Source: Eledone cirrhosa
Lineage: Eukaryota
NCBI GenBank assembly: GCA_964016885.1
Contig: OZ024740.1
Location: 60,512,001 to 60,576,000, forward strand
Length of the DNA stretch: 64,000 bases
Reading direction: 5' to 3'
The translations under genes and the position numbers were made by a program. The notes beneath the pieces were generated by a model. That model saw only the letters and a list, made by a program, of their open reading frames with translations, did no database searches and had not been told where the DNA came from. Shown piece by piece: positions 10,663 through 56,077 of the stretch (position 1 is the stretch's first letter; the number at the start of each line of letters is the position of its first letter).

Positions 10663-10814
10663 TGTTTCTACTTTTGGTACAAGGCCACCCAGTACATTAC
10701 TGGTACTTTATTTTATCGACCCCGTAAGGATGAAAGGCAAAGTGATTGTCAGCAATAAAATGATTTGAACATAGCTTTGATTATTGTGTAATATATATAT
10801 ATATATATATATAG

Positions 10815-11509
10815 ATAGATAATTTAATATATCTACTAACATAAGCGCACAGATGTACGCTAATGCCAGCAGATACACAGGTTATGTCATAGTACCTAGG
10901 TGGTTCAATGCAGGAGAATGCAGAACAATAATATATAAGACGTAAAATAAGAAAATTTCTTTAAAAAAATTTAAAAAAAAAAAAAAAAAGAAAAAAAGGT
11001 ACTATGACATAACCTGTGTATTTGCTGGCATTAGCGTACATCTGTGCGCTTATGTTAGTAGATATATTAAATTATCTATATTTATCTCCAAATCCCTGAT
11101 TTGTCGAGCAAACCTGCCAAAACCACTTCTAAAAAATTTTTTTTGGGGGTGTTAGTAGGCGTCTGTCATCTTACCATCCCATTCCTACTGACTAGCCTCT
11201 GTGTCACGTGATTGATTCTTTAGAATCGGCCATATGATCAGTGGCAGTGAGAATTTTCAGTGGCTGGAATCCAGTCCTCGGTAGCTGTTCAAGTTGCCGA
11301 ATTATTATTATTTTTATATGAGTCCCCAGTGTCCGCGCATCGCCTGGAGACTCGGCTGAGAATGACCTCCCTGATGACGCAATGAAATTCTCAACAGTTC
11401 ATTACGTAACTGTCTTTATCCCATTGCAGAAACTAATTAGTTGGAGTGAAAATTTAAGTAAGTTAATTTTTTTTTTTTTTTTTTTTTAAGAAATTTTCTT
11501 ATTTTACGT

Positions 11510-11620: not shown

Positions 11621-11702
11621 AAGCTGTCTGATGAGATCATGGCACTGGGTACTACGTGGAATTGCGTGGCCACTGTCGTCATCGAAATATGTATCACGGC
11701 TT
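11621..11702 (+). ncRNA. Type I hammerhead ribozyme motif
   Basis: AAGCTGT-CTGATGA-GATCATGGCA..TGTCGTCATC-GAAA-TATGTA-TC-ACGGCTT; AATAAA at 11707. Confidence 0.8.
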
Positions 11703-13223: not shown

Positions 13224-13382
13224 TGAGTTGAGATGGAGGGTCTGTGGTTTTTCTCACATCTGTATATGTATATGTATATATATATATATAACGAAGGAAA
13301 TGTGGTAAGGAACCAGGTGGACCATAACGCACCAAAGTACTCAATACTTGAGGTAGTAGAGTGGGTAATAGGAACCAGTAAG

Positions 13383-13476
13383 ACCCCGACAGCTGAGCTC
13401 CAGCCGTTTCGACGGCTAATTCTGGACTAAATGAAAATTTATCCTGGTATTTAAATAGCCGATCTTCTCAAGGGGT
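13383..13476 (-). ncRNA. Type I hammerhead, U3-A8 core, stable helix III
   Basis: Minus strand: ACCCC-TTGAGAA-GATCGGCTA..TAGCCGTC-GAAA-CGGCTG-GAGCT-CAGCTG-TC-GGGGT. Confidence 0.8.
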
Positions 13477-14588
13477 AATTCCATATATGGTCAAAGTGAT
13501 TGTCAAAAATCAGTAGTAATTCTGTGGTTGCAAATTAGTAGGGGAGATGGTGGCTAAACCTGCCAGTAGGAGAAAGAGGGGAGGGGGTGGAGTAGACCCA
13601 ATCAAGCGTTGGTAGTGCCAGCTACAGCTGGGCATGAGGTCAAAGAAGATACAGGGGAGGGGGAGGGGGAGGAAGTCGGAACGGTAGGTAGAACAATGGG
13701 GGGTAGAAATATATAGGAAAGAAAAAATACTGAGAGTGAAGAAAAGCAAATAAGTGTAAAGAAAAAAGTAAAGTAAATTAAATTCTACGACCTAGGTCTC
13801 AGGCTATTGTTAGGCTAGAATAAAATAAAGAAAGAAAGAAAGTAGTAAAGAAAGAAATAAATAAAGAAATAACGAAATAAGTAAAAGAACTAGGTGGGAC
13901 GAAATAGGCAAGGACCCTTTTAAGAGGTATAAGTACGTAAATGATACGGTGACGGGTCAACAAAAGGGGCCAAAATACTAAAGAGACTACCACGAAATAA
14001 ACAATAAAGGTTTCCATCCCGGGCCAGCAACGACCCAGTGCAGCAAAATGAACTTGTACGAGATAATAATTCTGAGTCCCGAGAAAAATATATACTAATG
14101 CTAACTCTAAAAGATCTAAAACAAGCTACATGAAAGTTCGTACGAAATAAAGGTAGAATACGGAGAAATAAATTCAGAATCCACCCCGCCCAGAAGAAAA
14201 GCGAAGCAAGAAATACTGAAACGAAAAAATAAGGCATAAGTGCCACTAAGAAATATAGAGGGCACAGAGAATAGTGGGAGCGGTCGGAAAAAGGGGGCAA
14301 GTATCCGGGGTATAAGCCAACTGCTATAAAGGGCGGAGTCCGCCAAATCTATCATAGACTAGGGGAGGGGGTGGTGGGGGTACTAAGGCTACATGGGGCC
14401 AAAGGGCAGCCTCGGGTGGGCGAGAAAAGACGCCGACAAAGGAGAAGAGCTGGGGTAGAAGGACTAAGGAGAGAGGGGGGAAGGAAATAAAGGAAGCGAT
14501 AAAAGAATACAAAGAAGATCTTACGTCTTCCTTGGCAAGCAGGGGTTACCCATTGCAAAATCGGCAAGTGGGGTGTTATAGCCCTAGT

Positions 14589-15728
14589 CTACCCCCTCGG
14601 GTCATTATGGGGTTTGAGGGCGAGGTAAGTCCAACGCAATCTATGTTTACATGCAGTGACCAGTTCATCTTTCTTGTTTAGGAGTTGGTCCGTCGAAAAC
14701 AGCATTTGTAAAGTTTCCTCCGAGCATAAATTGCACGGACGGCGTCCTCCCGTGTAAGAATTGGCTCTGGACAGTAATCTCCAAGTGAGATCATAGGTGA
14801 TGTTGTTGTCCTTGAGGTCCCATATGTGGCCCGAAAGTGTAGTGGCGTGACGCCGGGCCGGGTTTCGGAAGGTATGTCTATGTTGGTATAGCCGGGTCTT
14901 GAAGTCACATGCGGTAAGTCCTATATAGGCTTTGTTGGAGGTATCCGTCCTCACGTTGCACTGGTAGATCACATTACGGTCTCTGCATCTATTGTCGAGT
15001 GGGCAAATAGATCTATCCGGGCAGTTACACCTCCTGGTCGGTTCTCCACTGCTATTTAGGTTATTTCTGCCATCGGGGTTGAGTTTTTTGTTGTTAGAGG
15101 AGACGATGTTTTGTGCGAAGTTTGGTGTAGTGCTGTAAGAGAGTTTGTTGGTATTTTTGTTAATTATGTTGTGGTAGCGGTGTTGTAATGGGAAGTGTTT
15201 TTCAATGAGCCTAAAGAATAGTTTCCCGATGGGAGTTGTCACCTCTGCGTTGTGGGGAGGATTGAACCATGTTACATTGCGTGAGCGGCGGTGTCTCCTG
15301 CTGGTTCCGCTAATGGGAGCTGGACAGTAGGATATTTCCTCCCGGAAACCACTCCGCTTGAGGGCCTGGTTGTAATAAGGCGCATGTTCATCGAATATCC
15401 GCTCATTAGCTGACAAACGGGATATGCGGAGGGAGATGTTTTTGACCAGGTTGTTTGTGATGTTCCTAGGATGGTTTGATCGGCGGTGGATGTAGTGCAG
15501 ATTGTCATTAGGTTTCCTGTATGGGTAGTACAGGTCGTTATCGAGGTCGAGGGTCACGTCCAGGAAGTTTACTCGGGTCAGGGACGTTTGTAGGGTTATT
15601 TTAAATCCCCAGTCGCGGAAGAATCTGATTAATTGTTTCCGGACCCGATCTGTACTACTGGAGTTGTACCCTTTAAGGGTAAGGAGCCCATCATCACGGT
15701 ACAATCCACCACCGAATGCAGGAAACAT
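14589..15728 (-). CDS. PLE RT (C-terminal half) plus GIY-YIG endonuclease, truncated
   Basis: [31 protein letters not shown] linker, [20 protein letters not shown]. Confidence 0.9.
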
Positions 15729-15766
15729 ATCAGTGAGTTTGGCTATTAGGAATAATCCTATAAGAT

Positions 15767-16768: not shown

Positions 16769-19215
16769 TCATATTCCTTCAATAAGGTGCCGACCACCTC
16801 GATTTCTGAGGTGTTCGACACCATCACGGTGATGTCGCCCGCATAAGCCGACACCGCCTTTCCACGTCCCGGTCATGCCCTGCAACAGCTCCAGCTTCCG
16901 CAGTAAAGGCTCAAGAGTCAATACGTACAGAAGGGAAGAGAGAGAGCACCCTTGACAGACCGATCGGGAGAGCCGAAATGGTTCCGAGAGGTGGCCATTA
17001 ACCTTGACCACCGAGCGTGTGCCGCTGTGCATTGGAGCGATCCAGCTTCTGAAGACAGGGCCGAAGCCAGCTGCATTGAGGACAAATTCCAGATACCGAT
17101 GGTCGACCCTATCGAATGCTTTCGATTGATCTAAATTGATCATTGCCCCACAGAAGCCAGGTTTACACCCTACCCTCTCTATGATGTATCGCATGAGGTG
17201 GAGATTGTCGTGTATGGACCTGGCTGGGATTGCGCAAGTTTGCGCCTCCCCAACCAAATCCTCGACGACAAGCGCCAATCTCTTTGCTAACACCTTGGCC
17301 AAAATCTTAAACTCTGTGTTGAGCAGAGTTATGGGCCTGAAGTTGTCTAATGTATCCCTCTTGTTCTCGTCTTTCCTTATCAGCGTCACCACTCCCCTGC
17401 TCACAGAACTGGGAATACTCCCATTCTGCTGCCAGTTATAGTAAAGTGCTTCGAGGAGTTCGGAGAACAAGTCTGGCATATTTACGTAAAGCTCGTAGGG
17501 CAGGCCATCCAAACCGGGTGACTTGCGCCTCATGCAGCCGACAAGGGCGTCCTGAATTTCGGCTGAAGTAATCGGCCTTTCGCAGCGCTCAGCGTCGACC
17601 GTCGAGATGCGCGGCAAGCCGTCAAGGGAGGGACTGAAATCCGCTACTCTCTCTGACTCACCACTCTCCCCGAACAACCGAGCAAAGTGCTGGCGAAAGG
17701 CCTCACACATCCGCTTGGAATCGCTTATCTCGTGTCCGTCTCGGTCCGCCAAAGACCGAATTGTGGTTTTATTACCCCGCTGCACCTCCTCCACGCGGGC
17801 CCATCGAACAGCTTTGGTTCCCTCGTTTCTCAGCGCACGCGCCTTAGCTCTGACAATGCAACCTTCGTGTTTCGCATTGAAGAAATGGTCTAATGACATT
17901 CTCGCCACTAGCACGTCAGTTGCAATGCCACTATAAATAGCCTCATCTAATTTATCTACCAGCTCCCCCTCCTTTCTAGTTTTCTCTAACGCTAGTTCTT
18001 TGCTGAACTCTATCGAAGTTACTCTAATCTTTCTTTTGAGAGCCCCCACCATCTGTTGTTGATGATCCCCATGTCAACTTTTGCTTAACTAAATTGTTGA
18101 CTCGGTCCCTGTGAGCCTTACGTGCCGGAAATGACATGTTCAGCTTCCAGTAACCCGGTCCTAACCTACGCGTTTTATCTAGGTCGACCGTACAGATCAC
18201 AAATTTGTGATCTGAAGAGGCGACCGTTTTAAAAAGTGGGCAACCTACACTATTTCTATCTATTTTCCTAATGAAGATCCTGTCTATATACGATCTAGAT
18301 GACCCCATTCGGTTGGTCCATGTCCATACTGGCACATTGGGGAAATCTAGTCGATACCTGTCTGACATTTGGAACTGGCTGAGTAGGTGCTTGAGGCTTT
18401 TGCACCCCCCGCTCCTATCGGCTACTCCCACACGATCCCAGCATGCGTCTAAGATGCCATTCCAGTCCCCCACTAACAGTAAAGGGCGAGACATACCCAG
18501 AAAGGTCTCCAGGCGCCTAAAGAAGTCAGGTCGTCCGGCCCCTGTAGGGGCGTAGACGGCCAGCAGTCTAAAGGCACCACCTTCGCTACTGCTCACATCC
18601 AAGACCACCAACTTACCGTCCGGATCCCGGAAGATCGACCTTACCTCGAGATCCAGTCCTTTCCTAAACAGCACTGCCACCCCACCCCCCATTCCCGACC
18701 TGCTAACAGATGCGAAGATCTGATAGTCGTCGAAAATGGGGGCTAGTGCGCGCGTGTCGGAAATTCTGGTCTCGCTTACGGCAATCACATCCATTTCCAG
18801 CGACCGGAGGTCGTTGAGCAGGTGACCCTGCTTCCAGGGTGACCCCAGGCCGCGAACATTTAAACTTCCTACTCTTAATATGGCCATATTGGTAAGCTAA
18901 GAGAGAGAGAGGGAAGGTTTACTTACCTCCCGGGTCTTGTGAAGGTCGGGTGGTTCGACCTCCATGGTTGGTGGGGTTTCTTTTGGGAACCCCTTTAAAA
19001 GTCTTGATGTGCGTTTCACATTCGGGGTTCCCACGTCTTGAGGAAAGCTCTCTCGAATTTCTTTGAAGGAATTGAGTTACATTCGGACCATAATCAAATC
19101 TTCTGGCACGCAAAATGTGCTCATTTCAAAAATCTCTCCCTCTGTTTGAATGTCCTCGCTTCGCGCTAAGAGGGCCATCAGTTTATCGTTGGCCCTTCTG
19201 ACAAGCACGAAGTTT
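16769..19215 (-). mobile_element. L1/Tx1-clade LINE fragment (probable ORF1 end, APE, RT), disrupted
   Basis: 18024-18887 APE (SLNVRGL, SET, GDWN, SDH); 16769-18052 RT (KSPGLDGL, NFRPITLLN, DQSKAFD, QGC); frameshifts; YADD reads YAGD near 16840. Confidence 0.92.
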
Positions 19216-34515: not shown

Positions 34516-34785
34516 AATAATAAAAGGACGATTTGTTTTGTCTTCATTATGTTTAATGAGTAGTGACGTGCGTTTCGCTATTGATTAGCTCAAGGTTCGT
34601 TCTGTATGGATCTAGCCCGACTCTGGAATCAAAAGCTCGTCGAACCACAGCAGCAGTACGACGAGCTTTTGATTCCAGAGTCGGGCTAGATCAATACAGA
34701 TCAAACCTTGAGCTGATCAATAGCGAAACGCACGTCACTACTCAATAAACATAATGAAAACATAGCAAATCGTCCTTTTGTTATT
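34516..34785. repeat. Fold-back palindrome (about 127-bp arms, 16-nt loop) of an HHR-like pLTR
   Basis: 34516-34642/34659-34785; AGCAGT-ACGACGA-GCTTTTGATT..GATCAATAGC-GAAA-CGCACG-TC-ACTACT-C-AATAAA. Confidence 0.85.
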
Positions 34786-37319: not shown

Positions 37320-37570
37320 TACCTATCTATCTATCTATCTCTTAGCACAACAACAGAGCCTCTATGATGATCAGGAAGAGAGGATTTGTCAGTAAAGACG
37401 TAAGAAAAATAGAGGGATATTGTAAAAAGGTTACGCAGAGAGAATATATATATATATATACAGACACACTATGCGTACTATTATATTGAATATATGTATG
37501 TACGTAGTGTGTGTAAACACACAAAGAGGAGTGGAAATATATATATAGATATATACATATATATATAGAT

Positions 37571-37690
37571 AACGAAGGAAATGTGGTAAGGAACCATGTG
37601 GACCATAACGCACCAAAGTACTCAATACTTGAGGTAGTAGAGTGGGTAATAGGAACCAGTAAGACCCCCAGGGGGTCTTACTGGTTCCTA
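37571..37690 (-). mobile_element. Mini-copy of the 3' end of the 13290 PLE with a 20-bp fold-back
   Basis: 37571-37668 matches 13290-13387 (one mismatch seen); palindrome 37650-37690. Confidence 0.9.
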
Positions 37691-37717
37691 TATATATAGA
37701 GATATATATATTATTAT

Positions 37718-38342: not shown

Positions 38343-39050
<708 letters not shown>

Positions 39051-39777: not shown

Positions 39778-40283
39778 AAAATAAAATATAATATAAGTCA
39801 AATGTTTAAAATTTGGCTTCGTTTATTACTGCTATATATATTTCGGTGACCTCTTCAGGCAGTCCGAATTAGTGTGGTAGAGACGAGTACACATGTTGTT
39901 GAGGTGTCAATACTCTGATATGCCCAGTTCCTGGTTGGATTGTTGTTTCACTGAGGAACTGGAATCATATGAATTTAAACAAACGAATTTCAGCGTCAAA
40001 GGACATCTTCTCCTCTGACCAATGAGAGGAGAAGATGTCCTTTGACGCTGAAATTCGTTTGTTTAAATTCATATGATTTCAGTTCCTCAATGAAACAACA
40101 ACCCAACTGGGCATAGAGTATTGACAAAGTTAAACACCTCAACAACATGTGTACTCGTCTCTACCACACTAATTCGGACTGCCTGAAGAGGTCACAGCCA
40201 AAGATGGCTGTCACCGAAATATATATAGCAGTAATAAACGAAGCCAAATTTTAAACATTTGACTTATTTATTTTATTTTATTT
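39778..40283. mobile_element. Fold-back pLTR palindrome (about 240-bp arms, 8-nt loop) in (TA)n
   Basis: 39778-40016/40025-40283, with an HHR in both arms. Confidence 0.88.
40178..40232 (+). ncRNA. Type I hammerhead
   Basis: ACTGC-CTGAAGA-GGTCACAGCCA-AAGA-TGGCTGTCACC-GAAA-TATATA-TA-GCAGT-AATAAA. Confidence 0.82.
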
Positions 40284-40289
40284 TTTTAT

Positions 40290-40768
<479 letters not shown>

Positions 40769-55530: not shown

Positions 55531-55603
55531 AACAAAGAGGGTGTGGTAAGATACCAGGTGGATCTAGCTGTCGAAACGGCCGGAGCTCAGACGTCGGGGT
55601 CCT
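55531..55603. mobile_element. Micro-fragment of the 13290 PLE family with an inverted junction
   Basis: Terminus-like TGTGGTAAG.ACCAGGTGGA joined to an opposite-orientation HHR 3' half (GTCGAAACGGCCGGAGCTCAGACGTCGGGGTC). Confidence 0.7.
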
Positions 55604-56077
55604 GAATATTTTCATATATACATACATATATATATATACACTCAAATTTTAGGTATCATAATATATATATTATGTATGATGTTTGTGCTTCTCAATGGAA
55701 AAGCTCAATGGACATTTATCCAGAGATTCAATAATTCAAATTTATAGATATATATAGAGACACAGAGAGAGACAGCCATATATCTTTTGAGAAGACAGTA
55801 TTTCGTGCACACACAAAATGAACATAATATTTAGGAAGAATACATACTTCAAATCATGATCGATTGCTTAGATCGATTTTAAGTTGTGGTTCTTCTTGAA
55901 TCATGAAATCGACATATGGAAATAAGAAGTTGTTCCATAGGTATCAACAAACATAGAAATAAATACTAGGATAGATATGACCGACTAAACCCTTGAAAGT
56001 AATCTCACAGCATGGCTGCAGCCCAATGACTGTTATTCTTCTTCTTCTTCTTCTTCTTCTTCTTCTTCTTCTTCTTG

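Follow-up and report, generated by a model that had tools for sequence, protein, structure and literature searches.

The stretch of DNA analysed here, called the window in the following, comprises 64,000 nucleotides of Eledone cirrhosa (contig OZ024740.1, positions 60,512,001 to 60,576,000) and contains a palindromic insert of 123 bases with its arms at 37571-37691, which consists of two back-to-back partial copies of a Penelope-like element (locus L079); the bases 37569-37570 can be assigned to either the element or the target. Positions in the element are counted from the predicted cut of its hammerhead ribozyme, with +1 as the first base past the cut (window 13387, minus strand) and -1 as C17, the C of GUC. 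The insert and its flanks are composed as follows:

37561..37568, plus strand: left 8-bp target-site duplication ATATATAG, within a (TA)n tract
37571..37668, minus strand: long arm, +1 to +98 of the predicted hammerhead 3' product, 97/98 identical to 13290-13387
37669..37671, plus strand: untemplated junction filler CAG between the long and the short arm
37672..37691, plus strand: short arm, +1 to +20 inverted, ending at the second fixed end of the family (sequence comparison)
37692..37699, plus strand: right 8-bp target-site duplication ATATATAG, flanking the insert

Both insert ends lie in (TA)n, and the 8-bp flanking duplication had been absent from the first-pass annotation. There, 37571-37668 was described as exactly the 3' product of the ribozyme; the match indeed runs from +1 to +98, with one mismatch to 13290-13387, a G>T at 37597. 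The one extra G that had been recorded is correct as far as the long arm is concerned, and there is one extra base on the short arm as well. The junction reads CCCC-CAG-GGGG and can be taken as 21-bp arms about one A or as 20-bp arms about CAG, the latter being the perfect 20-bp inverted copy at the cut site that had been described, although its right edge is 37691 and not 37690. The run to the element end, given as 98 nt, measures 97-100 because the bases TAT are shared between this end and the (TA)n target. The filler CAG would be explained by an addition of CA to one cDNA and of CT to the other, with a 1-bp overlap.

A longer copy of the element lies elsewhere in the window:

13290..15758, minus strand: autonomous element, 5'-truncated copy, with a 3' UTR and with its pLTR ending at +98 on (TA)n (sequence comparison)
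14589-15758, minus strand: C-terminal part of the reverse transcriptase, Cys linker and endonuclease-like end of the element

In the 3.0 Gb of genome searched, the 20-mer from +1 to +20 has 15,634 exact copies, and the insert may therefore derive from another copy than the one at 13290. Many genomic ORFs are 98-99% identical to that of the window element, and the family is young and abundant. A tandem array (L216-L217) has a period of 3,531 bp with an ORF of 717 amino acids, and partial tandems occur as well, which is the arrangement of pLTRs. The first ATG of this ORF is at +191, and the ORF carries the motifs DKTG, FDIESYY and YRDD, and AYIG at the C-terminus. A Pfam search of the element's own ORF gave no match, and a GIY-YIG match above the cut-off was found on a homologue with 39% identity to it. 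A Cys-rich linker (CNC..CPL..C) precedes the endonuclease-like end, to be compared with the Neptune and Nematis clades, and the pLTR contains a hammerhead, as is characteristic of EN+ Penelope-like elements. All 15 long loci with both ends visible (15/15) have an inverted 5'-truncated copy with a one-ended tail of 78 nt.

The window and the other loci examined contain further elements. A short, decayed copy of an older subfamily of the Penelope-like element lies at 55531-55620, and a 224-bp tandem of -123 to +53 plus a piece of the 3' UTR lies at an insertion junction elsewhere in the genome (L226:1-754). A different family has inserted head-to-head at 39811-40260 of the window, where there are a minimal C3-G8 hammerhead at 40178 (plus strand) and a palindrome of 83 bp that has its centre near 40020; a further C3-G8 hammerhead-like motif lies at 11623 (plus strand), and several more hammerhead families are present among the genomic loci examined. 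Long near-perfect inverted repeats at 38343-38899, 34516-34785, 10809-11085 and 40619-40768 are possibly further head-to-head insertions, and 16769-18896 (minus strand) is a non-LTR retrotransposon with an endonuclease-like frame and an RVT_1 frame (E 5.9e-18).

The ribozyme of the Penelope-like element is located in its pLTR:

13383..13476, minus strand: type I hammerhead motif with U3-A8 core and long loop II (descriptor scan, fold)
13387..13388, minus strand: predicted scissile bond GUC/GGGG (position in the fold, breakpoint peak)

The predicted fold has three stems, with ACCCC/GGGGU pairing, a UUGAGAA core, GAAA, and GUC before GGGGU. It thus shows what defines a type I hammerhead, i.e. 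three stems, core positions 3-9, GAAA, G10.1-C11.1 and an NUH triplet, with U3-A8 in place of C3-G8, and this U3-A8 core is a published variant of Penelope-like hammerheads (PMC4209133). The folding z-score of 13383-13476 is a modest -1.69, with an equally good fold in 14 of 200 shuffles, so that the fold alone is weak evidence for a hammerhead, and an Rfam scan gave no hammerhead match, only microRNA-type matches on repeats and hairpins.

The breakpoints of the genomic copies were compared with the predicted cut. Loci were retrieved by a pattern anchored on a (TA)n-abutting short arm and a long arm, and counted by the spacer between the two, the spacer being 18 if both arms end at the cut. 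There are 243 loci with spacers of 0-30, 313 with 31-60, 1,493 with 61-90 and 2,845 with 91-120, and none in the reversed controls; these 4,894 short palindromes cover spacers of up to 120 nt and thus only part of the family. The exact pattern with both arms ending at or beside the cut occurs at 137 loci (about 3% of the 4,894) compared with 0 for the reversed control genome-wide, which rules out a chance pattern. Among the first 100 of the 243 loci in the shortest bin, the spacer is 17-19 in 56 and 22-30 in 6, and 37 of 70 loci from this bin are other than cut/cut. Both arms end at the cut in about 134 loci, whereas about 6 would be expected for independent arms, an excess of about 20-fold, with the expectation based on a discordant count of about 70 that was extrapolated from a hand tally (22 of 100 rows).

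A hand tally of the first 50 of the 137 cut/cut loci gave 20 blunt junctions, 23 with untemplated fillers, 6 in which bases of the upstream template are present as such or mutated, and 1 ambiguous case. The blunt CCCC/GGGG class is ambiguous as such, because the CG that spans the cut is its own complement, whereas the filler class is unambiguous. In the 70 loci evaluated by script, the arm ends at filler junctions are at +1 in 43 of 62 cases and at -1 in a single case, and therefore copying stops before C17. Single insertions can also show two or three stops at +1 (L351, L352, L353, with L351 having two), just as other single insertions show repeated stops near -41 (L350, L355, L356), and in L283 an arm of near-unit length begins at the upstream cut. 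ORF-ward arms that begin at the cut are rare (3 plus L283, versus 155 with upstream sequence). The peak is weaker and blurred in the older subfamily (about 9/59 by eye), and an unrelated, third hammerhead family had 0 of 9 loci with the cut/cut pattern, which are too few to decide on generality. A BLAST-type search, in which 40 of 227 candidates were scored, was biased to long matches and is unfit as a breakpoint histogram.

It is conceivable that the peak arises without any cleavage, if the reverse transcriptase stalls at the folded ribozyme, at the base of stem III, or if repair joins the arms within the G run or where the CG forms a palindrome. The cut is indeed only one base away from stem III, the 20 blunt junctions among the 50 are equally explained by joining at the CG palindrome, and other palindromic words are hotspots as well, with spacer 38, corresponding to the stem III hairpin, in 16 of 100 rows. 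But a stall at stem III should include the copying of C17, which is at odds with the +1 ends of the filler junctions, most arms read through stem III, microhomology cannot yield fillers, the concordance of the two arms is far in excess of independence, and the repeated +1 stops with template jumps behave like the stops at -41. An origin without cleavage is thus unlikely. The same holds to a much greater degree for a few amplified master palindromes, i.e. a non-autonomous element, or for assembly fold-backs. Recurring junctions could be seen in favour of master copies (CCCCGGGG, and also GGACTGAATT, which makes up about one fourth of the listed rows), but there are more than ten junction sequences, and since the long arms of the cut/cut copies belong to three haplotypes and their junctions are of many types, these copies do not stem from one amplified master (9 of 160 rows with more than 8 differences were dropped from the haplotype comparison). 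The asymmetric arms and the 8-bp duplications speak against both variants, and in the case of fold-backs a short-read contig that covers 37640-37695 without any difference adds to this, although it has less than 31 letters on either side and its source may be the same sample, so that this explanation is hardly tenable. The breakpoints therefore point to a hammerhead that likely cleaves in vivo, in germ cells.

The tandem copy L352:5074-5430 repeats +1 to +160 with three identical +160/+1 junctions, which may be due to rolling-circle copying of a circle of 160 nt with its ends joined at the cut, a repeated jump, or a later duplication, the latter being possible because two units share a substitution.

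The first-pass annotation had suggested mapping the 5' breakpoints of all copies in the expectation of a sharp peak at the GUC site. This peak exists, with 137 loci, but it is a minor one: weighted by bins, about 70% of the arm ends are at -35 to -45 and 3.7% at +1/-1, so that the cut accounts for about 3-4% (shares sampled from 70, 30, 30 and 30 loci of the bins with 243, 313, 1,493 and 2,845 loci). At the centre of the main peak, 5,924 genomic matches diverge from the common template just after -41, and about one tenth of the first 100 of these rows represents a template variant with C at -42. Two sequences near this position, which we take to be promoter motifs, are located as follows:

13425..13430, minus strand: initiator-like TTAGTC (TCAGTC in the variant), with the A at 13428 corresponding to -41, the centre of the main peak
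13450..13457, minus strand: TATA-like TATTTAAA, 29 nt upstream of -41 and inside loop II of the ribozyme, with a putative promoter function

Copying of an RNA cap is expected to give untemplated C, and among the 100 rows at -41, those that remain unexplained have untemplated 18 C, 8 G and 5 T (hand tally), which is a modest enrichment of C. Together with the motifs and the breakpoint edge, this suggests that -41, in loop II, is likely the transcription start. TATA and Inr motifs have been noted in pLTRs before (PMC3846280). An RNA starting at -41 would lack the 5' half of the ribozyme, and therefore only read-through RNA would cut in cis. A junction of -41 to -35 without obvious overlap recurs genome-wide in about a quarter of the listed rows.

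With respect to the second arm, the first-pass annotation had proposed snap-back or second-strand priming at the RNA 5' end. If it was snap-back, the ribozyme would cut, the cDNA would run off at +1 and copy itself to +20, and its end would then be trimmed or annealed to the target. This accounts for both arms stopping at the same base, a C/T variant at -4 mostly agrees between the arms where both have it (by eye), and low-frequency snap-back junctions do occur with an R2 protein (PMC11331408). However, the 20-bp arm stops at +20 as a fixed end of the family in all size classes, and in many cases it extends beyond the +98 arm in the upstream direction. Of 20 long insertions, 15 show both ends, and each of these 15 pairs one +20 end with one +98 end (in the other 5 there is a single arm, or an end is broken). 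In four non-tandem long loci (L276, L289, L290, L293) the +20 arm extends further upstream, by kilobases, as in L276 with a +20 arm of 2.6 kb and a +98 arm of 120 bp. Neither arm can be a copy of the other in these four, because the +20 arm is without +21 to +98 and the +98 arm is without the upstream part, and hence the second arm is not contained in the first cDNA. In the short palindromes of the three longer bins (n=86, with 4 of 90 rows dropped for gaps of at least 20), the +20 arm extends at least 5 nt further in 25 loci and the +98 arm in 15, whereby an off-centre deletion of the palindrome after insertion could mimic part of the asymmetry. The fillers also appear to be added from both sides: multi-base fillers are of the form (A/C)n(G/T)m in 8 of 10 cases, compared with 3.7 expected (P=0.002, with the shape chosen post hoc), which fits additions to two separate 3' ends. 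Snap-back is thus unlikely, to about the same degree as an origin of the peak without cleavage, and second-strand priming is nearer to the data, with the difference that the second cDNA would start at +20, with the other end of the target as its primer, and not at the RNA 5' end. Double priming is likely the better reading, for the cut/cut copies by analogy with their siblings. A base difference at -14 between the arms of L005-L008 had been considered as proof of two templates and was dropped, as these loci had been ranked by their likeness to the window copy.

Head-to-head structures would also result from self-priming on an antisense template, as has been proposed for rotifer Penelope-like elements on the basis of junction palindromes and intron retention (PMC3846280), but such a template does not predict the pile-ups at -41 and +1, which are predicted 5' ends of sense RNA, and this origin is therefore very unlikely in Eledone; the result favours sense RNA as the template.

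The preferred reading is that a read-through transcript with the whole hammerhead cleaves itself after GUC, and that both strands of (TA)n are cut in a staggered way by the endonuclease of the element, as suggested by the target duplications (5 informative ones among 142 loci, all of 8 bp, with a shuffled mean of 0.29 and a maximum of 3; 18 of 160 rows without a clean +98 end were dropped). The observed arm ends at +20 and +98 would be two priming sites, one per target end and each with a TAT overlap, from which two cDNAs would run off the 5' end of the RNA with terminal additions, as indicated by the +1 stops and added bases. The two cDNA ends would finally be united by a microhomology-type end-joining, in agreement with the overlaps of 1-9 nt, the trimming and the templated fillers seen at junctions. 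The far more common siblings would take the same route on RNA that likely starts at -41 and has no 5' half of the ribozyme. We assign this model as a whole, i.e. a staggered (TA)n break whose two ends prime on ribozyme-cut RNA and whose cDNAs are joined, a probability of about 0.7 on the basis of the sequences. The self-cleavage and subsequent reverse transcription proposed by the first-pass annotation agree with it, as the peak is base-precise at the scissile bond and accompanied by untemplated bases and repeated +1 stops, with cleavage itself as a predicted step. In a more far-reaching form, double priming would be obligatory, with a dimer extending both ends of an 8-nt staggered break at two fixed sites of one RNA and the host joining the cDNAs, and the promoter would lie inside the hammerhead, so that normal transcripts stay uncut and read-through transcripts are cut; the genome would then preserve the two RNA 5' ends with base precision, and possibly also circles closed at the cut. 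For this combination taken jointly the odds are about even.

Whether the hammerheads of Penelope-like elements cut in vivo has been stated to be an open question (PMC4209133, PMC8557442, PMC11167929), and so has the origin of the head-to-head inverted repeat with its one-sided tail (PMC3846280, PMC8557442). The 137 inserts likely record in DNA that the ribozyme cuts in living germ cells, and copying of the element likely proceeds from the two broken ends of the target. In this young family the predicted cut is represented by 137 junctions and the likely start site by thousands, and as many intact ORFs are present, both questions are directly testable. The role of the ribozyme is limited, as no more than a few percent of the junctions are attributable to cut RNA. 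Tails, microsatellite targets, and pLTRs that are inverted or contain a hammerhead have been known already (PMC8557442, PMC3846280, PMC4209133). A literature search that covered few subscription journals, so that an earlier mention is possible, found neither a breakpoint peak of a Penelope-like element at the hammerhead bond nor a double-priming account of the inverted structure.

Like EN+ Penelope-like elements with an inverted 5'-truncated pLTR and a tail, the Eledone element has tandem pLTRs, a head-to-head inverted copy, a one-ended tail, duplications within the range of 8-10 bp, TATA- and Inr-like motifs and a hammerhead in the pLTR, and microsatellite targets (PMC8557442, PMC3846280). 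Its tail is longer, with 78 nt as compared to 30-40, and the thousands of two-short-arm insertions with junctions at two predicted RNA 5' ends set it apart from the elements of these papers. There, the inverted structure has been attributed to endonuclease resolution or to antisense self-priming and not to two target-primed cDNAs (PMC8557442, PMC3846280). The long stem III of its hammerhead resembles that of the fungal and protist forms, and promoter-like motifs lie in its loop II (compare PMC4209133).

The Poseidon protein of Anolis carolinensis cuts and extends both strands in vitro, and two internal reverse transcription starts define the tail (PMC11167929). Double priming in Eledone would fit this double-strand extension by analogy, and an AT-rich target, a predicted dimer and, on the preferred reading, two internal starts and the cutting and extension of both strands are common features. 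In Anolis, no RNA-seq reads were reported to begin or end at the hammerhead cut, and ribozyme mutants inserted normally in vitro (PMC11167929), whereas the Eledone junctions peak at this site. In Eledone, stem III of the ribozyme is complete and the core is of the U3-A8 type, and the first ATG of the ORF follows at +191, whereas in Anolis PAc the cut is within the ORF (PMC11167929).

Non-LTR retrozymes consist of tandem units with a whole hammerhead in each (10.64898/2026.07.22.740005), whereas the insert of the window holds only the hammerhead 3' product and is no retrozyme in this sense. In another locus (L349:1286-3523, G000:C2:356029786-356032023) there is a 299-bp tandem of -99 to +220 with a shortened loop II and a whole hammerhead per unit. 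As it runs from -42 to +98 on (TA)n and has the tandem organization of retrozymes, it is a retrozyme-like derivative of the Penelope-like element.

In the twin priming of L1, the second target strand primes internally and the inverted segment is joined with microhomology, which gives non-overlapping inverted segments from one RNA. The mode of working is alike in Eledone, but the arms overlap, as +1 to +20 is in both, so that L1-type twin priming in the strict sense does not apply, and the two proposed priming sites are both fixed and their joint use is not confined to a minority of events but is the rule. R2 elements with an HDV-like ribozyme are similar in that the ribozyme determines the 5' terminus of the template, and this terminus shapes a 5' junction with untemplated bases (PMC11331408). 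Most templates of the Eledone element are uncut, in contrast to what is described for R2, and while R2 joins its cDNA to the upstream target DNA (PMC11331408), the Eledone element appears to join it to a second cDNA.
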